DNA from: a bacterium
GTDB taxonomy: Bacteria; Auribacterota; Erginobacteria; Erginobacterales; DAOSXE01
Assembly (NCBI GenBank): GCA_035380285.1
Contig: DAOSXE010000012.1
Span: 2,954 to 66,953, forward strand
Length of the DNA: 64,000 nt
Direction: 5' to 3'
Shown in pieces: positions 4,881 to 47,397 of the stretch (position 1 is its first letter; every line of letters starts with the position of its first letter). Position numbers and translations under genes: made by a program. The notes below the pieces were generated by a model that was given only the letters and a program-made list of their open reading frames with translations, was not told where the DNA came from and made no database searches.

Positions 4881-4888
4881 TTGCCGCG

Positions 4889-4918
4889 ATTGTAGCACAC
4901 AACCTCGGAGCGGTTAAA
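4889..4918 (-). promoter_or_regulatory. Sigma70-like promoter (TTTAAC-18-TGcTACAAT) ending 8 nt before ATG 4880
   Basis: Minus-strand read: TTTAACCGCTCCGAGGTTGTGTGCTACAATCGCGGCAAATG. Extended -10 (TGn) is present and no Shine-Dalgarno sequence is seen. Confidence 0.45.
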
Positions 4919-4924
4919 TATGGC

Positions 4925-4954
4925 TTGGGCCGGATAAAGCCCCGGGGCTAAGAT
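4925..4954 (+). promoter_or_regulatory. Sigma70-like promoter (TTGGGC-18-TAAGAT) ending 7 nt before ATG 4962
   Basis: Plus-strand read: TTGGGCcggataaagccccggggcTAAGATgacacccATG. Divergent from the 4880 promoter. Confidence 0.4.
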
Positions 4955-4961
4955 GACACCC

Positions 4962-5987: not shown

Positions 5988-6331
5988 TACACGCGGTCCA
6001 TCACCGAAAGGCGGCCGTTGCGGAACAGCAGCCGGTAGTACCCCGTCCCGAAAACCAGATGGTAACGGTATACCCAGGTTTCGTACCTGACCGTGGGATC
6101 GGAGTAACCGGGGACGAAGAAATTGGGGTCTCCCCAGGCGGCCAGAACGTCGTTCCGGCTCATGCCGACCACGACCTCGCCCCTCCGGATCATCTCCTGT
6201 TTTTCGGCGGACATGCCGGGGTTCAACTCCAGGTAAGCCTCGCGGCGGGCGGAGGTGGCGCAACCGCACGCGGACAGCGCCGCCACAGCGAGAATAAGCG
6301 CCGCGCTTCTCTGGAAGGGAACGGTACTCAT
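5981..6331 (-). CDS. Small lipoprotein, BamE/SmpA-like
   Basis: Internal ATG 6331 of ORF 5981..6769 overlaps the upstream stop (ATGA). Lipobox is ALSACGC. GMSRNDVLAAWGDP resembles the BamE/SmpA_OmlA motif. Confidence 0.6.
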   Translation of the reverse strand: MSTVPFQRSAALILAVAALSACGCATSARREAYLELNPGMSAEKQEMIRRGEVVVGMSRNDVLAAWGDPNFFVPGYSDPTVRYETWVYRYHLVFGTGYYRLLFRNGRLSVMDRVYY

Positions 6332-7479: not shown

Positions 7480-7491
7480 GAGCGGGAACGA

Positions 7492-7914
7492 TCAGGACAA
7501 CAGCGCGACGAGGATGATTCCGGCCCCGCAGGCGACCCCCAGAAGACAGATCGTCCGAACGAAAAGATTGTTTCTCCCCGCCACCAGGGCCTTGACCGCC
7601 TGAGGAAACCAACGGGGGAAAAACGCCAGGATAAGAGCCGCGCTTAAAAACACCCCCAGGACCATGGCCAAGAGGAGGAAGGCGGGAACCCGGTCGATCA
7701 GGACCGCGACCGTCGAGTACAGAAACCATATCCCGAAAGCTCCGACGAGGACGGCGGCGAAGCGGATAGCCCAACCGGGAACGTCCGCCAGCCAGGCCGC
7801 CCCTTTCCGGAAACGGGCGGGGTGGGTCACGCCGGGAAACCTCGTCGCCACTATCAGAGCCCCCAAGATCACCATCGTTATCTTGATCGCCGCGGCATTC
7901 ATGAAACTCTCCAT
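7492..7914 (-). CDS. Small integral membrane protein, function unknown
   Basis: ORF 7492..7914 with four hydrophobic segments. An alternative ATG lies at 7902. It sits 12 nt upstream of the next gene. Confidence 0.6.
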   Translation of the reverse strand: MESFMNAAAIKITMVILGALIVATRFPGVTHPARFRKGAAWLADVPGWAIRFAAVLVGAFGIWFLYSTVAVLIDRVPAFLLLAMVLGVFLSAALILAFFPRWFPQAVKALVAGRNNLFVRTICLLGVACGAGIILVALLS

Positions 7915-8132
7915 GAAAAAGTTTGAACGTTCTCCTTCTTACCGGAGTCTATATTGACGAACACAAAGTTTCAAGGTTCCGCTAGGGCGGAATCGAGAAA
8001 CCGGCAGGTTAAACGGTAAACAGGAGAAGCAGCAACTGTTCCGGCACGCTTGAAAGGCCCGAGATTATAAAAAGTCTCACCTCCCTGTTACATGGGCCTT
8101 CAAGAAGCAACCTCCAGAACCTGCCGGACCAG

Positions 8133-8169
8133 GCGAGGGGGCGGGCCACCGCCCCCTCGCTTTTCTTTT
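8133..8169 (+). terminator. Canonical intrinsic terminator on the plus strand (12-bp GC stem, GCCA loop, TTTTCTTTT)
   Basis: GCGAGGGGGCGG-GCCA-CCGCCCCCTCGC at 8133-8160, followed by TTTTCTTTT at 8161-8169. The U-tract exists only in the plus-strand reading, and no plus-strand CDS lies upstream. Confidence 0.6.
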
Positions 8170-8503
8170 ATTCCAGGTTCCAGGTCCGGGCCAGCCACTG
8201 CAGATCGGCGGCTTCTCCGAGATCGGCCGCGTCCGCTTCGGCGTAATCGACCAGAAAATCGAAAATGAGACGGCGGCTCTCCCCGCTCCCGACTCCGGCC
8301 AGAAATTCCTGAAAACCTTCGATCGCGGGAAACTTCTCGTCCACCTCGTTGAAAAGCCGATGGTATTCCTCGTCCCCTAGTTCCCGAGCCACGCGGTCGA
8401 TGTAGGCGGTTTCGCCGGGGGTGGTGCGGAGATCGCTGAGGGTCAGCCACTTGATCGCCCCCACCAGGGCCAGTTTTTCGTCATGAGTCAGTCGGGAAAA
8501 CAT
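8168..8503 (-). CDS. Small acidic cytoplasmic protein (helical, TerB-like suspected)
   Basis: ORF 8168..8503, 111 aa, rich in D/E, with no signal peptide. It begins 11 nt downstream of the C1 protease gene. The fold assignment is a guess from the sequence pattern. Confidence 0.6.
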   Translation of the reverse strand: MFSRLTHDEKLALVGAIKWLTLSDLRTTPGETAYIDRVARELGDEEYHRLFNEVDEKFPAIEGFQEFLAGVGSGESRRLIFDFLVDYAEADAADLGEAADLQWLARTWNLE

Positions 8504-8514
8504 TTCCGCCCTCC

Positions 8515-9309
8515 TTAACGGTCGGCACTTTTCCGTTCGCGAATCAACGCCAGCAGCTGCGGATCGGCGATAAGGTCCGTCGCGCTCCAGGCGTCCAGGC
8601 AGTAGTTCATCATGTAATCATATCCGAGGCAACCGTATCCTCGCTCTCCCCAGGATTCGCCCCAGGAGTTTTTGAACTTGAAATACCTTCCCTCCCGGCT
8701 GTATCCGACAACGCAGACGGCATGGCCGCCGAGCGGCCCCGAACCGTCGGCAGGGTCGGGAATGAGGCCGCCGGGAGCGTCGAACCACTCGGGAAAAACC
8801 TCCACCCCGGCCAGAAACGGGCCGTTGACGGCCAGGCTGCGCTCCATTTCGGCGGGACCGGAAAGCCGGACATAGGTGCCGATCCGGTAAGAAGCGGCCT
8901 GGGCATCGGCTTCCCCGCAGGGCGCGTCGCTCTGGTAGGGGCGGTAGGGCCAGCAATCCTCCCGGCATACCCCTTTTTCGGACAGGATTTTCATGGCCGT
9001 CCGGGGGTAGGTGCCTTCCTGATGCGGAATCCCGTCTTCCCGCTTGCAGGCGGCGTAGAGATAACGGGGGGAAAGCTCGATCAGGGTCCCGTGCTCCTTT
9101 TTCTCCTGGTATTCCTTCACCCCGACCACGGCGGCGAAACCGACGCAGGTTCCTTCTTCCCCCTGATCGCGAACCGGACTCATCCGGGAGGCGTAGTCGA
9201 TCTCTTCCGGCGCGGCCAGGCGGGGTAGGACGAGGGAGACGGGAATGTCCCTCCGGTCGTCGGGATCCTTGAGGCAACCCAGCCCGTAAACTCGCTTCCT
9301 CCGATTCAT
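8515..9309 (-). CDS. Papain-family (C1A) cysteine protease, no signal peptide
   Basis: Catalytic motifs are present: VRDQGEEGTCVGFA (Gln/Cys), GGHAVCVVGY (His) and KNSWGESWGERGY (Asn-Ser-Trp). The ATG overlaps the upstream stop (ATGA at 9306-9309). Confidence 0.9.
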   Translation of the reverse strand: MNRRKRVYGLGCLKDPDDRRDIPVSLVLPRLAAPEEIDYASRMSPVRDQGEEGTCVGFAAVVGVKEYQEKKEHGTLIELSPRYLYAACKREDGIPHQEGTYPRTAMKILSEKGVCREDCWPYRPYQSDAPCGEADAQAASYRIGTYVRLSGPAEMERSLAVNGPFLAGVEVFPEWFDAPGGLIPDPADGSGPLGGHAVCVVGYSREGRYFKFKNSWGESWGERGYGCLGYDYMMNYCLDAWSATDLIADPQLLALIRERKSADR

Positions 9310-11384
9310 TGCACCCCTCCTTGCGCAGCGCCCCCGCCGGGAGCGGTTCCGTTATCGGCCCGATAAACCCGGACCTCGAAATTGGCGTCGGGTGATTCGC
9401 GGTCGGGGCGGGCGGGCAGATGATCCCAACAGCGTTCCCAGATAACCGAATGCAGGGGTATCGTTTGTCTCAAGGTGAAGTTCAAACCGGTCCCGGAAGG
9501 GGGAGCCCCGTCGGTAAGGTAGTAGATCCCGCCGGGGAGGGAGTGTCCCCGGGTAAGAATCCGGAACCCGGCCGCCACCCCGTCCCGGTCGTCCCGGTAG
9601 AGCGGAAGCACCCGACGCCCCAGGGCCAGATCGAGGTAGGTGGGGACCTTGTCCACAAAACCGCCTCCGGCCAGGACCGGCGCGTCGGCCTTGATCTCTC
9701 CCGCCAACCACCGGGCGAACCCCAGAGCGCCGGCGTACTCCCGATGGAACCAGATGGGCCGGGACGCCAGGGCGGTGAGGACCGCGGTCAGCACGAAAAC
9801 GAGGGAGGCCGGCCCGCGCAGCCTCCGGCTGGAAAACCCCCGAGTCAGGGCGGCGGCGGCGAAAGCCACCCCCCCGGGGATGACGACCACGATATAGCGT
9901 CGAACCGCCCACATATAGCAGAAATGGATGAGTTGCTGCCAGAGGAAGAGCCCTCCGAAAACCAGCAGCACCAACAGGAGAAACCAGCGGGACGGCGACC
10001 GGTCCGCCGCCACCTGTCCCGCCATGCCCGCCAGGGCCAGGACGAGGCCGGGAACGGTGAGGAACCAGCCCAGCTCCAGGAAGTTGGTCCGTTCCGGATT
10101 TTCGACCCCGAGCCCCGGCCGGACGCAATAACCGAATATCGCGGCCGCCACCAGAACCAGCGCGACCGCGAGGCGGCATCGCTTCCCGGAGACCAGGGAG
10201 GCCAGGGCGCGGCGGGTACCCCGGCCCGAAAACCGGGCCGCCGCCAGACTCAGGACCAGGATCCCGGCGGCGACAAGCAGGATGCGCGATCCCGCCAGCT
10301 GAGCCGCCGCCAAGCGGGCATACCCGAATCCGAAGAAAACATGGGGAAGGAGGGAGAAACCCAGGCCGGCCAGCGCGGGGACCAGAAACCAAAGGTCCCG
10401 CGGGCGGAAAACCAGAAACCAGCGGCCGTAGTAAAAAAGAGCCAGGGGCAGCAGGAGCAGGGCGGAACTGATGTGGGAGACGAAAAAACATCCGAAAAAA
10501 ACTCCGGCCAGCAGTCCGGTTCTCCGCCCCGATCGTTTATTGAACGCCGCGAAACAGTAGAGCCCGGCAAAGAAAAGGAACTGGCTGAGTATTTCGCTGG
10601 TAGGGAAGCGCGCCTGCCAGATTTCGGCGACGTTGAGGGAGAGAAGCAACGTCCCCGCCAGGGCCGTCCGCCATTCCCAGAGCCGGCGCAGGGCCAGAAA
10701 GAAGGCGCATAAGGCCATCAGGCCCGCCAGGGGATTGAGCCAGAACATCCCGGCCAGCCCCGCCCAACGGTAGAAAACGGCCAGCCAGAGGGGGAAGAGG
10801 TGGTAGAACTGGGGGATAAGGCGACCGGGGCGGGAGGGATCGAGACGAAAGCCCGGATACTTCTCCAAGTACCCGGAGCTGTGCCGGGCGGCGAAGGCGT
10901 CGAGTTCGCCCGGAGTCAGAGCGGCGATAACCGGATCGTCGATCGCCAGTTTCCCCGTCCGTTCCAGATGGATCCCGGTGTTGACGTAAACTCCGGGGTC
11001 CCATCCCCCGAACAGGTAGGGGACCGGGCGGGCGAAGAACAGCGCCGCCAAGACCAGGACGCCGGGCAGGATCCAGCGGGGGGGGCGGCCGGGGGGCGGC
11101 GGGGGAACGCTCCGCAGGCGGGGTCGGGCCAGGAGCATGACCGACAGCGAGTAGAGGGCGTCCGCCAAAGCCAGCCCGGAGACCGAGAAAATCCCCAGAT
11201 AAGCCATGATCAGCCCCAGCACCGAAGAAACGCAGAAACTGACCGCCACCACCAGGAAACAGCATTCCCCCCTGGTGGAGTACGGCAGACGGAGGCGTTT
11301 GCCGGGCAGCCCCAGGGTCAACGCCCCGGGAAAAACCAGCAGAAGAACAACCTCCAGGATGATGACCAAGAGCTCAACCAACAT
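9306..11384 (-). CDS. Large polytopic membrane protein, GT-C-like (PMT/ArnT-type) glycosyltransferase candidate
   Basis: ORF 9306..11384, 692 aa, with more than 12 hydrophobic segments plus a roughly 130-aa C-terminal soluble domain. Function is inferred from architecture only. Confidence 0.55.
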   Translation of the reverse strand: MLVELLVIILEVVLLLVFPGALTLGLPGKRLRLPYSTRGECCFLVVAVSFCVSSVLGLIMAYLGIFSVSGLALADALYSLSVMLLARPRLRSVPPPPPGRPPRWILPGVLVLAALFFARPVPYLFGGWDPGVYVNTGIHLERTGKLAIDDPVIAALTPGELDAFAARHSSGYLEKYPGFRLDPSRPGRLIPQFYHLFPLWLAVFYRWAGLAGMFWLNPLAGLMALCAFFLALRRLWEWRTALAGTLLLSLNVAEIWQARFPTSEILSQFLFFAGLYCFAAFNKRSGRRTGLLAGVFFGCFFVSHISSALLLLPLALFYYGRWFLVFRPRDLWFLVPALAGLGFSLLPHVFFGFGYARLAAAQLAGSRILLVAAGILVLSLAAARFSGRGTRRALASLVSGKRCRLAVALVLVAAAIFGYCVRPGLGVENPERTNFLELGWFLTVPGLVLALAGMAGQVAADRSPSRWFLLLVLLVFGGLFLWQQLIHFCYMWAVRRYIVVVIPGGVAFAAAALTRGFSSRRLRGPASLVFVLTAVLTALASRPIWFHREYAGALGFARWLAGEIKADAPVLAGGGFVDKVPTYLDLALGRRVLPLYRDDRDGVAAGFRILTRGHSLPGGIYYLTDGAPPSGTGLNFTLRQTIPLHSVIWERCWDHLPARPDRESPDANFEVRVYRADNGTAPGGGAAQGGVQ

Positions 11385-11447: not shown

Positions 11448-14186
11448 TCAGGGGATAACGGCGCAGGCCGCGTCCAGGTCGAAACCGGAAGCCCCGGTCC
11501 CGGACAGCGCGTCCATCTCCGCGGTGTGCCGGACCAGGTCTCCGTTCTCGTCTTCCAACCAGAGGTCCCCGGTGGATTGGATGCGGATGTATTGAATCCA
11601 GTCCAGCCCCAGTTCGGAGATGTCGAACTGGTCGCCCCCGGAAACGGAGGGGTCGGTCGGATCGGGATAGCCGCCGTTGCTGTATACCGGATTGACGCCG
11701 GCGAAGCCCCGGTTGTAATTGTAGGGGTTGCTGAGATCCGAAGTCGGAAAATAATTGAAGGGGAACCGCTTCCAGTCGATCCCGTTGCGGCTGACCGAAA
11801 CCACCGCCGGCTCCATCCAGCGCCGGGCTTCGCCCCCGTCGTAAAGATAGAACACGTTTTCGAAGACGCTGAAGTCCTCTCCGGTCCCATCCGCGATGAG
11901 GTTGTCGAATTTGAGGGTTATGCTCCCCCCGTAGGGTGGCCCCTCGGGGTCGCCGGCCCGGAGCGCGTGCAGGGGCGCCACGTCCCGGCTCCCCTGCCAG
12001 GAACCGCCCCCCCGGGGAACCCCCAGACATTTTTCCGGATCCCCGGCGGACGCCGGGTCGAGGGGGGCATAGTCGACGACGTGGTCGGCGCAGGGGTCGT
12101 TCTCGCCGTTCAGGCTCACCGGTAACGGCACGGCGGAAACCACGGTCTCTTCGCCCAGCGGGCCGGGGAGGCCGGCGAGGTCGTAGACCACGACCGCGTA
12201 ATGGTAGGCGGACCCGTCTTCCAGGCCCGTATCCAGGTACGATTCCCCCCCCCCCACGTAGACTTCCTCCCCGTCGAGGGGACCGCGGGGGACGTGCAGG
12301 GAATTGCGTATGACCGAAATTTCCCGGAACGGTTCGTGCGGGTTGTCCCAGGCCAAGCCCACCGTCCGCGAAGATACCGCGCAGGAGAGCGCGGCGATTT
12401 CCAGTTCCCCCTGCGCCGGGCTCGGCGTCGTCTTCGGCGTGGGAACGCCTCCGGCGGGGGTCGAAGTCCGCCGGGGGGACGGCGTCGTGCCCGGGGTGGG
12501 GGAGACCGGCTCCGGAGTCTGCCGCGGAGTGGGCGTGGGGGTGGGCCCGGTCAGAACCTTCATCTGAAAATCGCCGGCGATTTCGCCGCCGCCCGAGTCT
12601 GCGACCAGGACGCGGAAAGAGAAGAAGGAAGCCTCGGCATAAGCGTCGGAAACGGTTCCGAAGATGATGCCGGCGTTGGGGTCGAGAACCAGGTATTCGG
12701 GCAGCGAACCCGAGACCAGCGAAAACGTATAGGGGGGGCTCCCTCCCGTGACTCCGACCTCGAACTGGTATTCCCGGCCGATGCGGACCTCGGCCTCGTC
12801 CGAGCCGCCCGGATACAGTCCGGTCAACTGAACCTGTTCGTAACCCACCGTCAAACGGAAATCGGCCTGGGCGGTCAAGCTCCGCCGGTCCGCGGCCAGG
12901 ATACGGAGATCGAAAATACCCGCTTCTTCGGGGATCCCCCCGATCTCCCCGGAAGCGGAGGCCAGGTAGAGTCCCGGAGGGAGATTCCCGACGGAGACGG
13001 TCCAGGTATAGGGAGGCGTTCCCCCTTCGGCCGTCAGGCTCTGGGCGTATAAAGACCCTCGAACCGCCGGAGCCAATTCCCGGGTGGTGATTTTAAACCC
13101 GCCGTACAGGCCCCCCGGCCCCTCGGGCCCGGCGATCGCAAGAAGAAAATCGCGCTCGGCCTGACGACCCTGAGAATCCTGGGCCCGGACGGTGAACCGA
13201 TATTCCCCCTCTTCCGAGGAAGTCCCGGCGACGATCCCGCGGGAGCCGTCCAGGGCGCAGCGGGGAGGCAGTTCGCCGGCCAGCAGTCTCCAGGAGTAGG
13301 GGGGGACGCCGCCCTCAGCGCGCAGGGCGCAGGAATAGGGCTCCCCGATCGTTCCGGGAGGAAGCGCCTCGGTGACGATCCGGAAAACGCCCTCGGCGAC
13401 CCGGAGGGTGAAGTTGGAGGTATCGGAGTCGCCTCCCCGGTCCGCGACTTCGAAACTGACCTCGAAATCGCCCAACTCCCGGGGAAGCCCCAGCAGCACT
13501 CCTCGGCGCGGCTGCAGCCGGATATCTCCGGGAAGGCTTCCGGAGACCAGCGCCCACGAATACGGAGGAGTTCCGCCCTCCGCCGAGAGCGGCGACTGAT
13601 ACCAAACCCCCAGGACCGCCGGAGGGAGGTCTTCGGTGACGATAACCGGCCCGGGCGCGGAACCGGGAGAATCGACCCGGACGATCATGCGCATGGCCCG
13701 GCGCGCCCTCCGCCCGCCGCCCTCGCGGACCGCCACGGTAAACCGCCATTCCCCGCCGTCCTCGGGTACCCCGGCGATGGTCCCGTCCTCGGCCAGTTCC
13801 AACCCGGGGGGAAGTTCGCCCGCGGCCAGAAACCACCGGGCTTTTCCCCGGGCCCCACGGACCTGAAGCCGGAATTCGTAGGCCGTCCCCACCACGCCCA
13901 TGGGGATATCGAGAGAAACGATCTCCAGGGGGGGGAGCGTGGGAGCGGGGCGGGGGGTCGCCCGACCGTCGGCACGGTTTCGCGGCCTCCCCCGGAGAGG
14001 CGCCCCCCGGCGCTGTTCCAGGTAGGGGTTTTTCGCCCGGGAAGCTTCCCGTTCGGCGGCTTCCCTCCGCCGCGCGGAGGCCCGGGAAGGGAACAGCAGG
14101 TCCTCCCCGGGACCGAACACGAAAGCGGCCGCCGCCGCCAGCACCAGGATCGAAACCGGAAGCAGCCTTTTCCAATCCGCTCTCAC
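11448..14186 (-). CDS. Cell-surface protein with about six Ig-like (He_PIG-type) repeats, Pro/Thr linker, FN3-like domain and an unknown C-terminal domain
   Basis: ORF 11448..14186. The GTG start gives the signal anchor RADWKRLLPVSILVLAAAAAFVFG. Repeated units match the pattern GGTPPYSW..VSGSLPPGL.L....G.I.G.P...G.F.F.V.V.D. The linker reads TGPTPTPTPRQTPEPVSPTPGTTPSP. Confidence 0.8.
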   Translation of the reverse strand: MRADWKRLLPVSILVLAAAAAFVFGPGEDLLFPSRASARRREAAEREASRAKNPYLEQRRGAPLRGRPRNRADGRATPRPAPTLPPLEIVSLDIPMGVVGTAYEFRLQVRGARGKARWFLAAGELPPGLELAEDGTIAGVPEDGGEWRFTVAVREGGGRRARRAMRMIVRVDSPGSAPGPVIVTEDLPPAVLGVWYQSPLSAEGGTPPYSWALVSGSLPGDIRLQPRRGVLLGLPRELGDFEVSFEVADRGGDSDTSNFTLRVAEGVFRIVTEALPPGTIGEPYSCALRAEGGVPPYSWRLLAGELPPRCALDGSRGIVAGTSSEEGEYRFTVRAQDSQGRQAERDFLLAIAGPEGPGGLYGGFKITTRELAPAVRGSLYAQSLTAEGGTPPYTWTVSVGNLPPGLYLASASGEIGGIPEEAGIFDLRILAADRRSLTAQADFRLTVGYEQVQLTGLYPGGSDEAEVRIGREYQFEVGVTGGSPPYTFSLVSGSLPEYLVLDPNAGIIFGTVSDAYAEASFFSFRVLVADSGGGEIAGDFQMKVLTGPTPTPTPRQTPEPVSPTPGTTPSPRRTSTPAGGVPTPKTTPSPAQGELEIAALSCAVSSRTVGLAWDNPHEPFREISVIRNSLHVPRGPLDGEEVYVGGGESYLDTGLEDGSAYHYAVVVYDLAGLPGPLGEETVVSAVPLPVSLNGENDPCADHVVDYAPLDPASAGDPEKCLGVPRGGGSWQGSRDVAPLHALRAGDPEGPPYGGSITLKFDNLIADGTGEDFSVFENVFYLYDGGEARRWMEPAVVSVSRNGIDWKRFPFNYFPTSDLSNPYNYNRGFAGVNPVYSNGGYPDPTDPSVSGGDQFDISELGLDWIQYIRIQSTGDLWLEDENGDLVRHTAEMDALSGTGASGFDLDAACAVIP

Positions 14187-14237: not shown

Positions 14238-16793
14238 TTAGCGCGCCAGGGGGACATCGCCCTCCCCTCCGAAATAAAACCTGGTTTTTCCCCGAACCGC
14301 CCACAAGCCGGAGGTTCCTCGAAAAACGGCGGGGTCGGCGGTGCCGTCGCCGTCCCAATCGACCACCACCGGAAGGTCCGATTCCCTACCGAAATGCAGC
14401 CGGGTGACGCCGCGGACGGCCCAGAGCCCGCCGCGGGGGCGGAATATCGCTATGTCCGCCTTCCCGTCGCCGTCGAAATCCCCTCTCAGAGGAACGTCCT
14501 CCTCCGACCCGAAAAACACCCGGTCGGCGCCGATCCGCCACAACCCCGACGCGGCGCGGAAAACGGCGGCGCATACCTCGGGACCCGTCCAGGGGGCGGG
14601 GAGGGGGGTATCTTCTTCCCGGCCGAAATAAAACCGGCTTATCCCCCGCACGTTCCAGAATCCGGCGGAGGCCCGAAAAATCGCGGCCGCGGCGGACGCG
14701 TCGCCGGCCCAGGCCGCGGGGACGGGGGTGTCGCCGGCACGGCCGAAATAAAAACGGGTGTCGCCCCGGACCGCCCAGAGTCCGGCGCCGGGACGGAAAA
14801 CCGCGGGCAGGTCCCCGAAACCGTGGGCGCCGAAGAAGGGAAGATCGCCGGCGGCACCGAAAAACACCCGGGTCGTTCCCCGCAGCCACCACGCCGAAAC
14901 GCCGGGACGGTAGATCCCGACCGCGGCGGGGACGGGATCGGCGAGGTCGATTTCCGAGATCGAGGAGTTGTAGTTGGCGTAACTCGTGCACAGCACCCCC
15001 AAAGTTCCCCCCGGCGCGATCGCCAGGGTCCCGGGAGCGTCGTCGCTGCAAGCCACGACACGCGGGTCCGAACCCGCTTCTTCGAGCAGGCAGACGTTTC
15101 CTTGATAGGAAGAATAAAACAAGCCCCGGTCGCTCCAGGCCATCCCCGAACAGGGCTGGGAACTCTCCTCCAGCCAGGCGATCCCGTCGCTGGCGACCAG
15201 CGGCACTCCCGAACTCAGGGCCTGGTCGATCCGGGAACGCCCGAAGCGGACGACCTGGGGACTGGCGGGGGCGGCGAAGCCGTAGTAGAGGTTCCCCTCG
15301 CCGTCCACCGCCACCGGCCCGGAATAGCCGCCGACGTCGGCCAGGGGCACGGGGCCGGCCTCGCTGCCGACAGTCCAACAGTAAAGCCGATTGCCGGGCT
15401 GGAAGGTAGCCGCGCTGGGGTTGGCGGAGAGAAACATCCTCCCGGCGCCATCGACGGCGCAGTCGTAGTTGCCCGTCAGGTCGAACCCTTGCCGGGGAAA
15501 GGAGCCGATCCCGCGGCCGCCCCCGGGAATCGTGAAGAGCGGGCGCCCCGGTTCGCTGCCGTCGCAGGGGACGCTCAACACCCGGTTGGTGGCGCTTTCC
15601 CCGAAGTAGACGGTTTCCCCGAAGACCCGCACGAAACTGCCGTAGTACCAGGGGTCGCCGAAGTCGTACAGGGTCTGCGAAGAAAATCCGGGGTTCTTGA
15701 CCAGGTAGCGGGCGCCGACGAAGGCGTACAGGTTGCCGGCAGCGTCGTAATCGAAGGCCTGCAGCCCCGGGACCCATTCCGTCGGTATCCCCAGACCCCC
15801 GGCGAGCAGGCCGCATTCCCCCGTGGAAGCCGTGAGCAGGGGGGCGCAATCCATGAGGAAAACGGTGCTGCCGTAGTCGGTCCAGTCGCTGGCGACCACG
15901 GCGATCTCGCCGGGCGCGGCCACGGCCACCGGCCCCAGGGAACCGGGCGCCGCGCCGCCGAATGCCTGCAGCCGCCCCGGCGAACTCTCTCTCCAAAGCT
16001 CGCCGCCGCTGGTGGCGACCAGAATCCCGGCCGCGGCGTCCGCCCCCGAAAGCCCGCTGGGGGCGTAGATCCCCGACGCCGCCAAACCGGCGTCCAGAAC
16101 GGTCAGGACCGGACCTCCCGCGACCGCGGCCGCGACCTGGGAGGCGCTCCAAACCGCGACACTTTCCGGGCGGGGAGGATAACTGCGGTAGAGACCGTAG
16201 TAGAGGTTGCCTTCGGGGTCGAAATCCAGGGGCCCGGAATAGCCGCCGGGACGAGCCACCGGAAAGGGCTCGCCCGATCCCGGCCAGCAGTAGATCCGGT
16301 TTCCCGCCCCGTCGGGGTTGGCGCTGACGAACATGCGCCCGGCGGGATCGAAGGCGCAGTCGTAGTTGTAGGCCAGGGCGAAATCGGAGCCGCGCCGGCG
16401 GGGAGGCGGGAGCCGGAAGAGGACCCGGGACTCCCCGGAACCGTCCCGCGGAACCGAGCGGACGCTGCCGTAGCTGCTTTCTCCGAAGTAAACGGTCCGG
16501 CCGCGGATGGCGACGAAACTCCCATAGACGTCGCTCTGGTAGGAGAACAGAACTTCCGGCACCCCTCCCTCGTACTCCAGGGAATACAGGGCGCTGTCGT
16601 GGATGTAGACGACTCCATCGGAGTCGGCGTCGAACCCCTCGATACCCGCTTTCCACCGGGAGGGATCGCCCGGAAGAGAGATCAAGGCCCGGGCGACGTG
16701 CCCGGGCGGAGGGGTAAAGTCCGGATACGCGAGCGCGCCGGCGGCGCCCCACAGAACCGCGGCCGCGGCCCCGACTGACAACCCTGTCTTCAT
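14238..16793 (-). CDS. Secreted 851-aa protein with two beta-propeller-like modules and six C-terminal FG-GAP-like repeats
   Basis: ORF 14238..16793. GGGAGG lies 5 nt before the ATG. The signal peptide is MKTGLSVGAAAAVLWGAAGALA. The internal duplication shows in VYFGESSYG...NYDCAFDPAGRMFVSANP...GNLYYG versus VYFGESATN...NYDCAVDGAGRMFLSANP...GNLYYG. Confidence 0.85.
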   Translation of the reverse strand: MKTGLSVGAAAAVLWGAAGALAYPDFTPPPGHVARALISLPGDPSRWKAGIEGFDADSDGVVYIHDSALYSLEYEGGVPEVLFSYQSDVYGSFVAIRGRTVYFGESSYGSVRSVPRDGSGESRVLFRLPPPRRRGSDFALAYNYDCAFDPAGRMFVSANPDGAGNRIYCWPGSGEPFPVARPGGYSGPLDFDPEGNLYYGLYRSYPPRPESVAVWSASQVAAAVAGGPVLTVLDAGLAASGIYAPSGLSGADAAAGILVATSGGELWRESSPGRLQAFGGAAPGSLGPVAVAAPGEIAVVASDWTDYGSTVFLMDCAPLLTASTGECGLLAGGLGIPTEWVPGLQAFDYDAAGNLYAFVGARYLVKNPGFSSQTLYDFGDPWYYGSFVRVFGETVYFGESATNRVLSVPCDGSEPGRPLFTIPGGGRGIGSFPRQGFDLTGNYDCAVDGAGRMFLSANPSAATFQPGNRLYCWTVGSEAGPVPLADVGGYSGPVAVDGEGNLYYGFAAPASPQVVRFGRSRIDQALSSGVPLVASDGIAWLEESSQPCSGMAWSDRGLFYSSYQGNVCLLEEAGSDPRVVACSDDAPGTLAIAPGGTLGVLCTSYANYNSSISEIDLADPVPAAVGIYRPGVSAWWLRGTTRVFFGAAGDLPFFGAHGFGDLPAVFRPGAGLWAVRGDTRFYFGRAGDTPVPAAWAGDASAAAAIFRASAGFWNVRGISRFYFGREEDTPLPAPWTGPEVCAAVFRAASGLWRIGADRVFFGSEEDVPLRGDFDGDGKADIAIFRPRGGLWAVRGVTRLHFGRESDLPVVVDWDGDGTADPAVFRGTSGLWAVRGKTRFYFGGEGDVPLAR
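14241..14924 (-). repeat. Six tandem ~38-aa repeats (FRPxxGLWAVRGxTRxYFGxxGDxPVxxDxDGDG)
   Basis: Read from the translation of the last 228 aa of the 851-aa protein. The same module occurs at 61511..62245. Confidence 0.85.
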
Positions 16794-16830
16794 TCCCGCC
16801 TCCCGATGGTTGTTCGCGGCGCGGGAGGGG

Positions 16831-16862
16831 AAAAACCCACCCCCGCTTCAAGCAAGGGTGGG
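16831..16862 (-). terminator. Intrinsic terminator forming the riboswitch expression platform
   Basis: Minus-strand read: CCCACCCTTGC-TTGAA-GCGGGGGTGGG, an 11-bp stem including 2 G-U pairs, followed by TTTTT. It lies between the aptamer and the RBS of the 851-aa gene. Confidence 0.75.
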
Positions 16863-16903
16863 CCGACGGCTCCCAGGCTCTTTTACGCGAAGGTCCTTGA
16901 GCA

Positions 16904-16991
16904 CGCGCGGCAGGGCGTTCTGACTTCTCCCGTGGGAGTTACAGCGGCGCGACCGTCCCGGAGTCTCACCGGGTTTCCCCTGCTCCGCGCG
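16904..16991 (-). promoter_or_regulatory. Cobalamin (B12) riboswitch aptamer
   Basis: Minus-strand read: CGCGCGG-AGCAGGGGAAACCCGGTGAGACTCCGGGACGGTCGCGCCGCTGTAACTCCCACGGGAGAAGTCAGAACGCCCTG-CCGCGCG. It has a P1 helix, the conserved GGTGAnAnTCC...GCCGCTGTAA core and a B12-box-like AAGTCAGAAcGCCCTGCC. Confidence 0.8.
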
Positions 16992-17009
16992 TAATTCTAC
17001 TATGGCGGA

Positions 17010-17039
17010 ACTCTAATCTCCGGAGCCGGCGCCGGTCAA
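17010..17039 (-). promoter_or_regulatory. Candidate promoter for the riboswitch transcript (TTGACC-18-TAGAGT)
   Basis: Minus-strand read: TTGACCGGCGCCGGCTCCGGAGATTAGAGT. The predicted start is about 10 nt before P1. It is back-to-back with the divergent promoter at 17048. Confidence 0.4.
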
Positions 17040-17082: not shown

Positions 17083-17466
17083 ATGGACGCCAAGATCAAG
17101 CTCTCCCTGATCAATAACCGGGGCGAAGGGTTCATGGGCATCGGCCTGGTCTGGCTCTTGAAGAACATCGACGAGTGCCGCTCGATCTCGGGAGCCGCCC
17201 GGAGTATGAAGCTCTCCTACGTCAAGGCGCTGCGGATCGTCAACCGCCTGGAAAAGAACCTGGGGCGCAAGGTCGTCAACCGGACCCGTGGAGGCGACAG
17301 CCGGGGCGGGACCGAGCTTACCCCCTTCGGCCGCCGGTTCCTGGAAGCCTACGAGCGTTACCAGGCCGAGGTCGATCGAGCCGCCCGGGCCGGATTCCAA
17401 CGGTTTCTCGGGAGCGGCTGGGACCGGGAAGACCGGGCCGCACCGGGGCTCAGATCAGAAGATTGA
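17083..17466 (+). CDS. Stand-alone winged-HTH regulator, ModE N-terminal-domain-like
   Basis: ORF 17083..17466. RSISGAARSMKLSYVKALRIVNRLEKNLGRKVVNRTRGGDSRGGTELTPFGRRF parallels the ModE/LysR-type HTH. No Mop domain is present. Confidence 0.75.
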   Translation: MDAKIKLSLINNRGEGFMGIGLVWLLKNIDECRSISGAARSMKLSYVKALRIVNRLEKNLGRKVVNRTRGGDSRGGTELTPFGRRFLEAYERYQAEVDRAARAGFQRFLGSGWDREDRAAPGLRSED

Positions 17467-19255
17467 GGAGCGTCCCCACCCCCAGGGACGCCCCCACCAT
17501 CACCGCCAGGGACTTGAGAAAATCCCTCGTCCCCAGTTCCTTGAGCAGAACGGTGAAGGTGGCCACGCAGGGGAAGAACATGGCCAGAACGGTGCAGGCG
17601 ACCACCAGCTGCCCGGGTGCGAGGTCGAGCGGCTCCAGCATCCCCACGGCCATGTCCTTGCGCAGAAACCCGATGGCCAGGGCGGCCACCGATTCCCGGG
17701 GAAGCCCGAGCAGGCCCTCCACCACCGGCGCCGCCCAGCGGGAAAGACGATCGAAAACGCCGAAGAAGTAGAGGACGTTCACGGCCGCCACCCCGATCAG
17801 AATCACGGGGAGCGCCTCGCGGAGAAAACACCAGACCCGCACCCCGACTTTGCGCAGGAACGGCCCGGGCGGAGGGAGGCGGTAATGGGGGATTTCGATG
17901 ATCAACTCGGGGGAATAACCTTTGACCAGGCGGCTGAGGACGAAACCGAGGCCCAGCCAGGTGGCGAAGAGCGCCAGATAAACGGCGGCCACGTAGCGCA
18001 GGCCCCACCGCCCCAGGAGGCCCACGACCATGGCCTGCAGCGCGGCGCAGGGGACCGCGATCGAGATCAGGGTCGAAGCCAGAAACCGCTCCCTCCGGCT
18101 CTCCAGTATCCGGGTGGCGAGAATGGCGGGGACGTTGCACCCCAGTCCCAGGAGGGTGGGGATAATAGCGTACCCATGCAGCCCGACCCGGTGCATGACC
18201 CCGTCCAGGAGAACCGCGAGACGGGGGAGGTAGCCGAAGTCTTCGAGGAAACTCAGGACCAGGTAAAAAACGGCGACATAGGGCAGAACGATGCCCAGGG
18301 GAATGAAGATGCCGGTGGTGAGCATCCCGAAGGAATCCATCAGGTCGACGCGCCCGGAGATCAGGTGTCCGACCAGAAGGTCGTGAACGAACCCCGCGCC
18401 GCCCAGCCACTCGGAGAGCCGCGAGACCACCGGGACCCACAGGGTTCGAAAAAGGTATTCGGTCCCGAAACCGATTTTTAAAAACGGCTCCCCCCATACC
18501 CCCACTTCACCGGCCACCAGGAACTCCCCCAGCAGCCGCACCAGGGAAAACGCCCCCAGAATGACCAGAACCGCGATCGGTATCCCGGTCCAGGGGCGGA
18601 CGCTGAGATCGGAGAGCGTCTGCAGAAACGTATGGTGGTGGTGGACCAGGGTCTGCACCCTGGAAACGATGCGCCCGATCGCGAGCCAGCGGTCTTCCTC
18701 GCTCAGGGGACCCAAGCCCGGGGAGCGGGCCTGGGGCAGGCGGGCCACCATCTCCCGGATCCCTTCCCCGGTGATGCCGACGGTGGGAACGACCGGGACC
18801 CCGAGCATCTCCTCCAGGAGGGGCGCGTCGATCTTCACTCCCCGGTGGGCGGTTTCGTCCCACATGTTGAGCGCGACGATCGCCGGGACCCCGGACTCGA
18901 GCACCTGCAGGACGAAATAGAGGTTCCGCTCCAGGTTGGTGGAGTCGACCACGCAGACGGCGTAGTCCGAATCCCGGAGGATCTCCAAGGCGACCCGGTC
19001 CGAACGCGAAGCGGCGTCGAGGCTGTAGACTCCGGGCGCGTCGATGATCTCGATGCGCTGCCCGGGCCGGAAGCGGCCGTCGCCGCCGTCCTCCAGGTCC
19101 GAAGGCCAGGTGAGGTTGCCCCGGGAATATCCGACCGTCGTCCCCGGGTAATTGGAAGAGATGACGTGAACCCCGGTCAGGCGGTAAAAAACCACGCTTT
19201 TACCGACGTTGGGGTTCCCCACCAGGGCGACGGAGGGATGGGACGGGGCGTTCAC
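17450..19255 (-). CDS. feoB: Ferrous iron transporter FeoB
   Basis: ORF 17450..19255 with a GTG start overlapping the feoA stop (GTGA). It has the G-domain motif VALVGNPNVGKS followed by a polytopic permease. Confidence 0.92.
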   Translation of the reverse strand: MNAPSHPSVALVGNPNVGKSVVFYRLTGVHVISSNYPGTTVGYSRGNLTWPSDLEDGGDGRFRPGQRIEIIDAPGVYSLDAASRSDRVALEILRDSDYAVCVVDSTNLERNLYFVLQVLESGVPAIVALNMWDETAHRGVKIDAPLLEEMLGVPVVPTVGITGEGIREMVARLPQARSPGLGPLSEEDRWLAIGRIVSRVQTLVHHHHTFLQTLSDLSVRPWTGIPIAVLVILGAFSLVRLLGEFLVAGEVGVWGEPFLKIGFGTEYLFRTLWVPVVSRLSEWLGGAGFVHDLLVGHLISGRVDLMDSFGMLTTGIFIPLGIVLPYVAVFYLVLSFLEDFGYLPRLAVLLDGVMHRVGLHGYAIIPTLLGLGCNVPAILATRILESRRERFLASTLISIAVPCAALQAMVVGLLGRWGLRYVAAVYLALFATWLGLGFVLSRLVKGYSPELIIEIPHYRLPPPGPFLRKVGVRVWCFLREALPVILIGVAAVNVLYFFGVFDRLSRWAAPVVEGLLGLPRESVAALAIGFLRKDMAVGMLEPLDLAPGQLVVACTVLAMFFPCVATFTVLLKELGTRDFLKSLAVMVGASLGVGTLLNLLI

Positions 19256-22986: not shown

Positions 22987-25900
22987 ATGAACACCACCGG
23001 GGAAAATGCCTTCGCCTTCACAGTTTCGGACCTGATCGAAACCCTGGCCCGGGGCGACGAAGAAGCCCGGGCGGAAGCGGCCAGAAGCCTGGGACGGCTG
23101 CGCGACCCGGCGGCGACCCAGCCGCTCATCAACTGCCTCCACGACAATTCGCCCCTGGTCGCGGCGGCGGCGGCCAACGCCCTGGGAATGGTCCGGGACG
23201 CCCGGAGCGCCGAGCCGCTGCGGGAACTGCTCCGCTCCCCGGAGCGTGAGGTTCGCTCGGCGGGAGTGCTGGCCTTGGGCGCCCTCAGGATTTCCTCGAC
23301 CGTCCCCTCCATCGCCGGGCTGCTCCACGATCCCGATTCCTGGGTCCGCGCCAGCGCCGCCCTGGCCCTGGGGAGGGTGGGGACCGAACAGGCCAACCCC
23401 CATCTGGTCGAAGCCCTGGCGGACGAAGCCGCGGACGTCCGGGCGGCGGGAGCCGACGCCCTGGGCGTCATCGGCTCCACCTTCGGAGTCGAAGCTCTTC
23501 TGGAGCGTCTGGAAGATTCCGACGCCGGGGTCCGCGCCAGCGCCGCCGGCGCGTTGGGGCAGGCGGGAAGCCTGAAAGCCGTCAAACCCCTGATCGGGCT
23601 CCTCCAGGACGTCAAAACCGCGGTCAAGCGGGCCGCGGCCGAAGCCCTGGGCCTGTTGGGGGACACCCAGGCCGTCGCGCCCCTTATCCACCTCCTCACC
23701 CTGATCGAAAAAAGAACGGGCGACCATAAGCCCCCGCCGGCGGAGCCGGAGGTCGCGGTGGCGGAACCCGGAGAAGAAACCGGGGCGGCGCCGGTCGAAC
23801 CGACCACCTTCGGCGCCTTGGCCGTAGCGCACGGGCTCATAACTCCCGAGCAGCTTCATCAGGCCCTGCGGCTCCAGTCCGAGATCGAAAGCAACGAGGG
23901 GCGCCACGTTCTTCTCGGCGAGTTGATGATCGAGCGCGGCCTGATCACCCCGGAGCAGCGCGACGCCATCCTCGCCCGGCAACGGCGGCTCCTCCTGGAG
24001 GAAGAGGCGGCCGGAGGGGTCGATAACGTCCCCGCAGCCGAGGAGGAGGGGGGCGAGGAACCGGCCCGTAAAGTCAAAGAAAAAGATCGGCTCCCCCCGA
24101 TCAAGATCACCTCCGGGACCATCCGGGCCACGGCCGCGCTGTCCCTGGGCCGGATCGGGGACGACCGGGCGGTGGCGCCTCTGATGGAAACCCTTAAGGA
24201 CGAAGAGTGCGGGGTTCGGGCCCAGGCGGCCGCGGCCCTGGGGATGATCGGAGACGACCGGGCGGTGGAAGCTCTCCTGGCCTGCACCGGAGACGCCGAA
24301 AGCTGGGTCAGGGACGAAGCCGAAACCGCCTTGGGGGTTCTGGTCAGCACCGTCACCGTCGAACTGCTCAGGCAGGGAACCGCCCACGACAACCCTCTGA
24401 TCCGAAGCGCCGCCAACCGGCTCTTGGCCCTGACCCCCGACCCGGAATCGTTCCGTCTCCTGGTCGAATCCCTGGGGGATCCCGACCCCGGGGTGCGGGC
24501 GGCGGCCGCCGCCGCCCTGGGCCGGCTGGGGGATCCTCGGGCCCGCAAATTCCTCATGACTTTGCTCGAGGACGGCTCCCCTCTTCCCCGGGGAGCGGCA
24601 GCGGAAAGCTTGGGGTGGTTGGGAGAGGCGGAAGACGCGGTCGCCATCCGCCCTCTCCTGAACCAGATCAGCGCTTCCGTGCGGATCTCGGCCGCCACCG
24701 CCCTGGGGGAACTGCGGGATCGGGAGAGCATCCGGCAACTGGAACAGCTTCTCGGCTCCCCCGAAGTCCGGGTGCGCCGGGCCGGGATCGAAGCCCTGGG
24801 GCGGATCGGGGGCGGCGAGGCCGCGGACGCCGTCCGCAGAGCCGTCGAAGACCCCGATCCCGCGCTGCGGGCCCTGGCCGCCGGGATCATCGGGCGGGGA
24901 GGAAACCGGGAACTGACGGAGGTTCTGGCGGCTCTGATCGCGGACCCGGTGCGCCAAGTCAGAATCTCGGCGGCCAGGGCGCTGGGGCGCCTGGGCGGGG
25001 AAGGAGCCGGCAAGGCCGTCGCCGCGCTCCTGGACAACGAAGACCCTTTCCTGCGGGCGGCGGCGGCGGAAGCGTTCGGGCGGGTGGGCAGGAACGAAAG
25101 TCCCTTCAAGCTCATCCGTCTGCTCGAGGACGAAGAGGCCGTGGTTCGCCGGGCGGCGATCCGCGCCCTGGGTTTGATGGGCGACGCCGAGGCCTGCGCG
25201 CCGCTGAGGGCCTGCCTGATCAGCGACGACCCCGAATCCAGGGCGGCGGCGGCCGCCGCCCTGGGAAGGCTTCAGGACCGGGAAGCCGTCGGAGAACTTC
25301 TGGAAATTCTCGACGACCCCGTTCCCGAAGTGCGCAAAGCCGCGGGACAGGCTCTGGAGCAGGTGGTTACGGCGGCGGAATTGGAACGTCTCCTGAAGAT
25401 CCTCAACGCCCCGGCGGCGGATATCCGGGGCACGGCGGCGCGGCTGCTGGCCCGGATCCACGACCGCCGGGCGCTGGACGCCCTCGTGGGCAAACTCAAG
25501 GACGAAGACCCCGAAGTCAGAAAAGGGGCGGCCGTCACCCTAGGCGTCCTGGGGGACGACCGGGCCGTGAGTCCGCTGATCGCCGCCCTGGAAGACGAGG
25601 ACTGGTGGGTGCGGAGGGCGGCGGCCGACGCCCTGGGGAAGATGAAGGATCCGCGCGCGCTCGAACCGCTCTGCCGGACGATCAGGGACGAACGTCGCGA
25701 GGTCAGGAGCCGGGCGGCGTGGGCCTTGGGAAGAATCGGAGGCGAAGCCGCCCGGGGGAGTTTGCTGGAGGCGCTGGATGACCCGGTGAGCTGGGTGCGC
25801 CGACGCGCGGCCGCGGCCCTGGGAGAGGTGGGGGGAGAGGATGCGGTGGGCGCCCTGATCCGGGCCCTCAACGATCCCGCCGGGGAAGTGAGACGAACCG

Positions 25901-47325: not shown

Positions 47326-47397
47326 CTGCCCGGCGAGGGCTCGAACCTCGAAACTCGGCTCCAAAGGCCGATGTGTTGCCAATTACACCACCGGGCA
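47326..47397 (-). tRNA. tRNA-Gln (anticodon UUG), CCA not encoded
   Basis: Hand-folded cloverleaf on the minus strand: acceptor TGCCCGG/CCGGGCA, D arm GTGT/ACAC, anticodon arm TCGGC-CTTTGGA-GCCGA and T arm CGAGG-TTCGAGC-CCTCG. The discriminator is G and the length is 72 nt. Confidence 0.9.

Follow-up and report, generated by a model that had tools for sequence, protein, structure and literature searches.

A cobalamin riboswitch precedes genes for a tandem propeller protein and a remote BtuH-like protein in a member of the Auribacterota

Introduction

Most microbes need corrinoids without making them, and the machinery that captures these compounds shapes community structure. To our knowledge, the accessory surface binders BtuG, BtuH, BtuJ and BtuK are known almost only from gut Bacteroidota. 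Here we describe a cobalamin riboswitch and the operon that follows it in a 64-kb stretch of contig DAOSXE010000012.1, from a bacterium of the candidate phylum Auribacterota. This whole stretch is referred to as the window, all coordinates are positions within it, and both the leader and the operon lie on its minus strand (Table 1). The first two genes of the operon encode a tandem propeller protein (g1) and a stalked protein whose C-terminal domain is a remote homolog of BtuH (g2), and relatives of both are found behind cobalamin riboswitches in other lineages. We consider it likely that the operon serves corrinoid acquisition.

The window contains a single cobalamin riboswitch

A preliminary description of this DNA, made from the letters alone, had proposed a cobalamin riboswitch with a terminator platform in front of a secreted propeller protein. 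The aptamer sequence that it quoted is present letter for letter on the minus strand at 16992-16903, and an Rfam scan of the 64-kb window places a match to the AdoCbl-II family RF01689 at 16990-16905(-), scoring 37.9 bits (E 2.1e-5; gathering cut-off 36.5). The covariance-model check that it had suggested for this strand therefore comes out above the gathering threshold, by a margin of 1.4 bits. At the same site a second member of clan CL00101 also exceeds its own cut-off and is suppressed as an overlap, and in a local scan the AdoCbl family RF01482 scores 47.8 bits against a cut-off of 50, a shortfall of 2.2 bits, over a span (17004-16869) that includes the downstream P13-type hairpin. The RF01689 match is the sole riboswitch in the window at curated thresholds. 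Apart from it, Rfam detects at gathering score just one feature in the window, a tRNA gene at 47326-47397(-), with 60.2 bits.

The elements of the leader follow one another as promoter-like site, aptamer, P13, terminator, Shine-Dalgarno (SD) sequence and ATG, ahead of a gene on the same strand, and all orthologous loci show this order. Thirty-seven positions of the aptamer are invariant in an alignment of nine orthologous leaders, which also provide the covariation described below, and we regard it as almost certain that this RNA is a cobalamin riboswitch. The label of a compact, class-II-like variant holds up in part: P6 in the window is a short hairpin without a long extension and RF01689 passes, if barely, but RF01482 collects more bits and the orthologs are split over three Rfam families. 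These data do not allow ligand preference to be deduced. The riboswitch itself is ordinary, and its interest lies in the genes that it controls.

The leader is conserved upstream of g1 orthologs

Close relatives of g1 are few; we found about ten among 5.8 billion protein clusters, and compared their contigs together with eight further genome loci (numbered here with the prefix L). One homologous locus is from Candidatus Euphemobacter frigidus, of the phylum Ca. Auribacterota in the PVC group, and others are labelled 'PVC group bacterium'. Every g1 ortholog with enough upstream DNA has the leader, which amounts to 16 loci, approximately 12 of them distinct, in metagenome-assembled genomes (MAGs) of Ca. 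Auribacterota and the PVC group. Cobalamin-clan matches at gathering score lie directly upstream of g1 and on the same strand in L002-L007, L009-L012, L014, L015, L017 and L018, and in L008 and L013 (Ca. Euphemobacter frigidus) RF01482 scores 38.1 bits upstream of g1. The one locus in which no riboswitch match was found is L016, where just 327 nt of upstream sequence are available and are filled with palindromes; we treat this locus as uninformative rather than as a counterexample. The closest relatives, L002 and L011, are as compact as the window leader and match RF00174 at 46.7 and 43.8 bits, respectively.

Nine distinct orthologous leaders were used for covariation analysis. Compensatory changes occur in 27 of the 47 consensus pairs, with the aptamer, P13 and the terminator all included, and the order of elements is the same throughout: an aptamer, a P13-type hairpin (GCUCAC...ACUUCGCGnnAAAGG...GUGAGC), a terminator hairpin and an invariant U run. 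All nine leaders have terminator hairpins, with predicted energies of -16.6 to -23.2 kcal/mol. The periphery is more variable: the window, L002 and L011 have a short P6, L005 and L015 have one with a long extension, and the leaders of L008 and L013 contain a 43-nt insertion. Because such peripheral elements differ between orthologs, the best Rfam family varies by locus, and the orthologous leaders fall into RF00174, RF01482 or RF01689. The aptamer is far more than a chance occurrence, as the same architecture of aptamer, hairpin and terminator recurs with covariation.

Some of the longer leaders contain additional elements. In L006, L008/L013, L009, L012 and L014 the terminator is followed by a second GGAGG and then by a very short open reading frame (ORF) of 4-17 codons, and a UUCCGGC...GCCGGAAU pairing is conserved in these leaders, likewise located after the terminator and ahead of the g1 start codon. 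This region may represent a leader peptide or a second regulatory hairpin; the shorter leader of the window lacks it. Clusters of perfect palindromes resembling repetitive extragenic palindromes (CCCCGATTTTATCGGGG-type units) fill positions 1-330 of L016 and the long leaders of L007 and L014.

Architecture of the expression platform

A consensus scan returned two promoter-like sites in the leader region, where 0.1 would be expected. Downstream of the aptamer, the P13-type hairpin is part of the RF01482 match and is conserved with compensatory changes in all leaders. The CGCG of its loop and the invariant L5 loop (UCGCGCC) are complementary, and we infer that a kissing-loop contact between L5 and P13 is possible. 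The hairpin and TTTTT that had been noted after the aptamer, and the GGGAGG (16804-16799) and ATG at 16793 that follow, are all present as described, with the hairpin counted here as 13 pairs including G-U. Between terminator and start codon a second hairpin could pair a CCUCCCG with the SD region, and the arrangement of anti-SD and SD is similar in L002 and L011.

The region upstream of the riboswitch contains feoB (17450-19255(-)), then feoA and fur, and in L006, L011 and L018, too, the riboswitch has feoB as its immediate upstream neighbor on the same strand. We rejected the possibility that the riboswitch is a 3' element of feoB, as the two are separated in the window by a ModE-like gene, which is divergent, and by a promoter-like site. 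The former encodes a 127-aa ModE-like winged-helix protein (17083-17466(+)).

g2 carries a BtuH-like C-terminal domain

The g2 protein has one hydrophobic segment, at residues 8-26, consistent with a membrane anchor, and has neither a Cys at this position nor a lipobox. Pfam identifies five He_PIG immunoglobulin (Ig)-like stretches in it (149.9 bits), and its last part is a domain of approximately 220 aa for which a search returned 68 relatives. These are mostly short stand-alone proteins, some of which carry dockerin, type IX secretion system (T9SS) or CarboxypepD_reg domains. A profile built from 36 of the 68, termed A2, matched two chains only when compared with every PDB sequence, namely 8blw_B at residues 434-498 (E 0.005) and 7biz_A (E 0.83). 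The first of these is BtuG1, which carries a fused BtuH domain in its C-terminal ~250 residues (PMC8941943, PMC10404256), and the second is BtuH2. An AlphaFold2 (AF2) model of the g2 domain, with a predicted local distance difference test (pLDDT) score of 79.9, also had 8blw_B as its top Foldseek match (E 8.5e-5, probability 1.0, TM-score 0.44), and this was the sole match at E<=1e-3.

For a direct comparison, BtuH-type sequences were rebuilt from a Bacteroides contig (L019), by joining its frameshifted ORFs, and from the PDB alignments of BtuH2 and BtuG1. Aligned by hhalign against BtuH2, the H domain of BtuG1 and BtuH1, A2 gave a probability of 90.3% (E 1.5e-6) over the N-terminal 58 columns, and against single BtuH-type sequences it gave 74% and 88%. 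As aligning the g2 domain family to BtuH with MAFFT gives an unreliable C-terminal half, which conflicts with the collinear local matches of HMMER, residues were mapped in the N-terminal half only. Here, N777, F779 and E792 of g2 align with Asn399, Phe401 and Glu406 of BtuH2, and the three positions are conserved in 36, 28 and 35, respectively, of the 36 family members. In BtuH2, Asn399 and Glu406 are part of the metal site that holds the phosphate of the nucleotide loop, and Phe401 stabilises the corrin ring (PMC13616437); the roles of these residues are also described in PMC8941943.

We regard g2 as a remote BtuH-like protein that appears to share the same overall design without being a close family member, and its BtuH-like domain is the strongest single functional clue in the operon. 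The earlier statement that the window encodes no recognisable B12 transporter or enzyme stands at the level of annotation, as Pfam scans of the 51 ORFs with high third-position GC content returned no canonical one, but the adjacent g2 carries a remote BtuH-domain homolog. DUF4465, the domain of BtuJ, was rejected for the g2 domain, since no protein of the operon matches it in Pfam even at E<=10.

The g2 domain also matches the NCBIfam model NF033170 ('LIC_13355 family lipoprotein'; E 3.7e-10), below its cut-off. Work on Leptospira LIC_13355 has been confined to its properties as a host-binding adhesin, with B12 unmentioned (PMC11891782); this protein may be a corrinoid binder.

g1 is a tandem propeller protein

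The controlled gene had been described as encoding an 851-aa signal-peptide protein with two propeller modules and six FG-GAP-like repeats, and as being no known B12 gene. Both statements agree with what we find. An N-terminal hydrophobic segment or signal peptide, in which no lipobox Cys is present, is followed by two homologous modules of ~300 aa each (about residues 25-315 and 330-620). Structure prediction, which had been suggested for this protein, yields two six-bladed propellers; in the AF2 model each module consists of six four-stranded blades (pLDDT ~80-90), and Foldseek finds the best structural matches in YWTD propellers, likewise six-bladed, from LRP6, LRP2 and LRP4. The C-terminus (about residues 626-851) aligns as six FG-GAP-like repeats of ~40 aa each, modelled with a pLDDT of 50-65, and the Pfam FG-GAP match is marginal, with 22.3 bits in one stretch against a gathering score of 22.1. 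Shorter g1 orthologs contain one module and the repeats. Beyond the marginal FG-GAP match, g1 has no match among PDB sequences, Pfam or NCBIfam and none to an annotated B12 family, and in particular none to YNCE or DUF5074 in Pfam.

Both protein families recur behind cobalamin riboswitches in other lineages

In metagenomes, A2 detected 80 loci, and we searched 485 kb of these with a covariance model built from the nine Auribacterota aptamers. The model recovered both riboswitches of the Bacteroides contig L019, which served as a positive control, and produced 34 matches, 33 of which lie on the strand of the domain gene. An aptamer was found upstream and on the same strand at E<=0.01 in 26 of the 80 loci, and in 14 of the 26 loci with more than 4 kb of upstream sequence. 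Rfam RF00174 confirms 18 of the 20 loci tested, at 43-108 bits. TonB-dependent receptors are encoded in six of the eight A2 loci that were annotated (L023, L037, L041, L042, L064 and L085), where they lie between the riboswitch and the domain gene or adjoin the latter; the model that best fits the receptor of L064 is the one for B12 receptors. One A2 domain, that of L041, forms a fusion with a YNCE/DUF5074 propeller and so has the architecture of BtuG1. The A2 domain family is thus a frequent member of cobalamin-riboswitch regulons in lineages unrelated to that of the window.

The g1 module has 94 relatives at E<=1e-3 among 1.84 billion representative proteins, most of which are single propellers of 300-450 aa. 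One locus from the g2-domain scan, L064, from an organism of 52% GC, contains an ORF (4660-5874) that the hidden Markov model (HMM) of the g1 module matches at E 3e-21 (BLASTP: 30% identity over 179 aa, E 5e-12). This ORF lies between a gene with a BtuH-like domain and the B12-type TonB receptor, behind an RF00174 match of 107.9 bits. Weaker g1-module matches occur in L063, L021 and L022.

Three distant relatives of the g1 module were looked up (L100, L101 and L102), and a cobalamin aptamer is present upstream of all three. In L100, RF00174 scores 101.6 bits directly upstream of the g1-like propeller gene, which is followed by the gene for a 1430-aa PKD-repeat protein that ends in an A2 domain (E 1e-60). 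Next come genes for a BtuF-like binding protein and an ABC ATPase. In L101, an RF00174 match of 113 bits is followed by a stand-alone A2-domain gene (E 2e-51) and then by the propeller gene. The aptamer of L102, detected by our own model only (25.8 bits, E 5e-6), lies 330 nt upstream, and the contig ends before any neighboring gene. The pair of a g1-type propeller and a BtuH-like domain behind a cobalamin riboswitch is therefore conserved across lineages (L064, L100 and L101), partnered by a TonB receptor in L064 and by a BtuF-like ABC transporter in L100. Genes g3-g6 are absent from the riboswitch loci of other lineages.

The L100 contig (riboswitch at 5567-5783, with its flanks) is probably archaeal, judging from a Pus10 match of 228.6 bits, against a cut-off of 200 for the archaeal NCBIfam equivalog, and from a binding protein closest to the PGF-CTERM-anchored type. 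As far as we know, it would be unusual for an archaeon to have a cobalamin riboswitch.

Relationship to known corrinoid-capture systems

Among known systems, the accessory machinery of BtuG and BtuH in Bacteroides B12 loci comes closest. Like BtuH2 (PMC8941943), g2 consists of an Ig-like stalk followed by a C-terminal domain; the profile of this domain matches only the BtuH domain in the PDB, as does its model at E<=1e-3, and the equivalents of Asn399, Phe401 and Glu406 are kept. The two also share their genetic setting, as g2 stands behind a cobalamin riboswitch and its family is found elsewhere with TonB receptors and sometimes fused to a YncE-type propeller. In contrast to BtuH, however, g2 has a He_PIG rather than a PKD stalk, a membrane anchor in place of a lipoprotein signal, and an operon without btuB in another phylum, and the sequence identity between them is very low. 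Homologs of BtuH have been described as predominantly from Bacteroidota, with three Firmicutes species in addition (September 2026 review, PMC13616437).

BtuG is a seven-bladed YncE-family propeller, a surface lipoprotein that caps BtuB in Bacteroides (PDB 8BMX, 8BM0; PMC10404256). The product of g1 is likewise a predicted extracytoplasmic propeller protein encoded first in a B12-riboswitch operon and beside a BtuH-like protein; a relative of its module stands beside the B12-type TonB receptor of L064, and a propeller is paired with or fused to a BtuH domain in both systems. Unlike BtuG, g1 has six-bladed, YWTD-like propellers, two of them in tandem and followed by FG-GAP-like repeats, it lacks the YNCE/DUF5074 domains and the lipobox, and it has no BtuB/TonB partner in its operon. 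It is not a member of the BtuG family, which it resembles only in its proposed role and its context.

Two further comparisons concern the RNA and another accessory binder. Like RF01482 riboswitches, which use P13 as a kissing-loop platform, and RF01689 aptamers, in which the P6 extension is missing, the leader has a four-way-junction core, a B12 box, a short P6 and a downstream P13 loop able to pair with L5, and it would follow the same off-switch logic with an intrinsic terminator; it differs in that the score of the window borders both families, the peripheries of the orthologs vary, and the controlled genes are outside the classical btu/cob/metE/nrd set. BtuJ, a DUF4465 beta-jellyroll, is comparable as an accessory surface binder of B12 that was first noticed in Bacteroides riboswitch loci and proved widespread in environmental bacteria (PMC13398666), but it belongs to another fold family. 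Our literature search found no paper linking cobalamin riboswitches to g1- or g2-type proteins or to Auribacterota surface proteins.

A model of corrinoid capture and its alternatives

We propose that the operon is off when corrinoid is plentiful and that g1-g5 are expressed when it is scarce. Binding of the ligand would stabilise P1 and the contact of the aptamer with the P13 hairpin, the 13-bp terminator would form, and transcription would stop at the U run; the kissing contact between L5 (UCGCGCC) and P13 (CGCG) probably holds the leader in this terminator-permissive form. In transcripts that read through, the SD sequence would be sequestered by the second hairpin. In the absence of ligand an alternative pairing would have to disrupt the terminator, allowing g1-g5 to be transcribed.

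The products of g1 and g2 would then be displayed outside the cytoplasmic membrane of a diderm PVC-group cell. The window encodes a BamA with five POTRA domains and Skp, which indicates an outer membrane. In this model, five Ig-like domains and a Pro/Thr-rich linker would give g2 a long stalk that presents its BtuH-like, corrinoid-binding head, and g1, the conserved partner of the g2 domain, would probably bind or hand over corrinoids, a role played by BtuG in Bacteroides. Transporters whose genes lie elsewhere in the genome would take over the captured corrinoid; Auribacterota MAGs have been described as those of anaerobic fermenters, with genes for cobalamin ABC transporters and for corrinoid proteins (PMC9324843). 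The comparative data support a variant of BtuG/BtuH-type corrinoid capture in which binding is predicted for these proteins. The suggestion in the preliminary description that g1 is a B12-repressed surface factor for corrinoid capture, analogous to BtuG but of another architecture, is likewise supported by the linkage to the riboswitch in about 12 distinct loci and by the distant g1-module relatives behind aptamers (L100-L102 and L064), with a BtuH-like gene adjoining in L064, L100 and L101.

Several observations weigh against this model. The homology between g2 and BtuH is remote, and good support for it is limited to the N-terminal half of the domain (58 columns, TM-score 0.44). Equivalents of Asp522, Ser582 and Glu584 cannot be placed, as the C-terminal half is unreliably aligned, the 'PAPGQF' contact motif of BtuH2 (Gln333/Phe334) is absent from the g2 domain, and BtuH2 itself (7BIZ) is not in the top 50 Foldseek matches. 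The structural matches of g1 are generic propellers only, with TM-scores for the whole model that are low because the model is multi-domain, and the best PDB match of its profile, YncE at E 0.07, is not significant and is not counted here as evidence. According to Pfam scans, the Auribacterota operon encodes neither a TonB-dependent receptor nor BtuFCD, and no TonB receptor is found in the window either. The capture model also leaves unexplained why a cytoplasmic-looking peptidase (g4) and a GT-C-like protein (g3) are part of the operon, and with this the link between B12 limitation and a conserved papain-like hydrolase.

The expression platform provides further points of this kind. The window leader has a U run of no more than five, which is why a simple terminator scanner did not flag the hairpin. 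The fold that combines aptamer and terminator is the minimum free energy (MFE) structure of the window leader already without ligand, and a conserved antiterminator was not found among the nine leaders. Folding of transcript prefixes gave a candidate in three of the nine (the window, L009 and L014), in which the 3' half of P13 pairs with the 5' arm of the terminator, and this pairing was not seen in the other six. Other antiterminator candidates, such as mimics of the 3' strand of P1, were inconsistent across leaders and were rejected. Since the terminator form is the MFE structure in the window, the switch is probably kinetic.

An alternative that we judge unlikely is that the riboswitch is real but governs a B12-responsive surface structure that does not bind corrinoids, such as an adhesin or an envelope-remodelling module made under B12 starvation, for example for attachment to B12-producing partners or detritus. 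A glycosyltransferase and a processing protease would accompany the Ig-like stalks and FG-GAP-like repeats in such a module. He_PIG and FG-GAP-like repeats are typical of adhesins, the related LIC_13355 was studied as a host-binding lipoprotein, g3 is weakly similar to protein O-mannosyltransferases and g2 has a Pro/Thr-rich linker, and the operon contains no transporter. However, the g2 domain matches only the BtuH domain by profile and, at E<=1e-3, in the Foldseek search, and keeps three residues of the BtuH ligand and metal sites, and elsewhere this domain and the g1 module are found with B12-type TonB receptors or BtuF-like ABC transporters, a context that argues for uptake rather than adhesion.

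Also conceivable, if quite improbable, is a mainly enzymatic operon in which g4, with g3, g5 and g6, frees corrinoids from carriers or remodels them by amide cleavage in the manner of CbiZ, with g1 and g2 as accessories. This would fit g4 being the most conserved gene (63-71% identity) with its catalytic Cys/His/Asn context kept, the translational overlap of g3 and g4, and the absence of g3-g6 from other riboswitch loci, which suggests a lineage-specific added function. Yet Pfam and NCBIfam scans show no similarity to known corrinoid-remodelling enzymes, g4 without a signal peptide could not reach extracellular carriers, and it is g1 and the g2 domain, not g4, that are shared across lineages, which is why we place the core riboswitch-tied function with these two. 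That the window aptamer is a decaying or non-switching copy, acting as a constitutive attenuator or responding to another ligand, is hardly credible: its scores are near threshold, its P1 is very stable, its P6 is minimal and its terminator conformation is favored without ligand, with no antiterminator found, but the invariant core of the nine leaders, including the B12 box and L5, is intact in the window (by construction of the alignment), P1, P13 and terminator covary instead of decaying, and the leaders of the same compact form, L002 and L011, pass RF00174.

Returning to corrinoid capture, the case is one of an anaerobic 'dark matter' candidate phylum that places two unannotated, predicted surface proteins under a B12 riboswitch. 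A divergent BtuH-like domain family is common in environmental metagenomes, often under a cobalamin riboswitch, and g1 defines a small new propeller family that travels with this domain. Both families are apparent capture components outside Bacteroidota that can be tested directly for B12 binding, and they illustrate a riboswitch-anchored route to capture systems outside the gut. A bolder proposal, which we put forward only tentatively and hold to be doubtful, is that the g1-type propeller represents a class of corrinoid-binding proteins unrelated to BtuG and forms, together with the BtuH-like domain, a widespread two-gene module defined by its riboswitch in many uncultivated bacteria and possibly in the archaeon of L100; the Auribacterota would then use a route without a TonB receptor, via the GT-C-like protein and the papain-like hydrolase, for uptake, release from carriers or remodelling.

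Operon layout and remaining genes of the window

Genes g1-g5 are closely packed on the minus strand (Table 1), and by tblastn the synteny g1-g2-g3-g4(-g5)-g6 is conserved across loci, often with feoB just upstream. The polytopic protein encoded by g3, which is syntenic in L002, L004, L005, L008, L013, L015 and L016, shows a weak likeness to GT-C/PMT_2 glycosyltransferases (PMT_2 17.5 bits in Pfam, below the cut-off of 26.1). The start of g4 overlaps the g3 stop; its product retains the context of the Cys/His/Asn triad and is without a signal peptide or hydrophobic segment by hydropathy analysis. The g5 protein has no signal peptide and no family in Pfam and NCBIfam scans, and is 62% identical to its counterpart in L002. 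The hairpin that follows probably marks the end of the riboswitch-controlled transcript, although its T run is on the plus strand only and termination on the minus strand would have to be supposed. Promoter-like sites ahead of g6 (8091-8064 and 7974-7946) suggest that this gene is probably transcribed from its own promoter.

Table 1. Coordinates of the leader elements and cluster genes in the 64-kb window
Feature	Position	Strand	Description	Basis
Sigma-70-like promoter candidate	17010..17039	-	TTGACC, 18 nt, TAGAGT; leader would start near 17003	Consensus scan
Cobalamin aptamer	16903..16992	-	GC-rich P1, four-way junction, short P6 hairpin, B12 box AAGUCAG	RF01689, RF01482, covariation
P13-type regulatory hairpin	16869..16902	-	Conserved CUUCGCGnnAAAG loop region	In RF01482 match; conserved in all leaders with compensatory changes
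Intrinsic-terminator-like hairpin	16831..16863	-	13 pairs including G-U (16863-16835), -23.1 kcal/mol; TTTTT at 16835-16831	
Second hairpin	16795..16830	-	CCUCCCG (16828-16822) pairs with SD region CGGGAGG (16805-16799)	Direct reading, MFE folds; putative function
g1	14238..16793	-	851 aa; predicted secreted, two propeller modules, FG-GAP-like repeats	
g2	11448..14186	-	912 aa; membrane anchor, Ig-like stalk, Pro/Thr-rich linker, C-terminal BtuH-like domain	
g2 C-terminal domain	11451..12098	-	About residues 697-912, ~220 aa	Remote BtuH-domain homolog
g3	9306..11384	-	692-aa polytopic membrane protein; at least 12 hydrophobic segments and a C-terminal soluble domain	
g4	8515..9309	-	264-aa papain-family (C1) cysteine peptidase	Peptidase_C1 88.6 bits (Pfam)
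g5	8168..8503	-	111-aa acidic soluble protein; last gene before strong hairpin	
GC-rich 14-bp hairpin	8131..8162		Directly after g5 stop codon	
g6	7492..7914	-	140 aa, four hydrophobic segments; syntenic with cluster in six other loci	

The g6 protein has weak TMEM260-like and PMT_2 matches, and its gene is followed by one of the geranylgeranyl reductase family (region 6328-7914(-)). A second PMT_2 GT-C enzyme (40.9 bits) is encoded at 58787-60409(+), and GT2/GT4 genes are found at 54.5-60.4 kb. Along with the Pro/Thr-rich linker of g2, these genes hint at protein glycosylation via a reduced polyprenol carrier.

Two large proteins are encoded elsewhere in the window. The first, of 1551 aa (22987-27642(+)), consists nearly entirely of HEAT repeats, with 22 HEAT_2 stretches and 800 bits. 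The second, of 817 aa (61508-63961(-)), has FG-GAP_3 and Reelin-subrepeat matches and is unrelated to the riboswitch operon.

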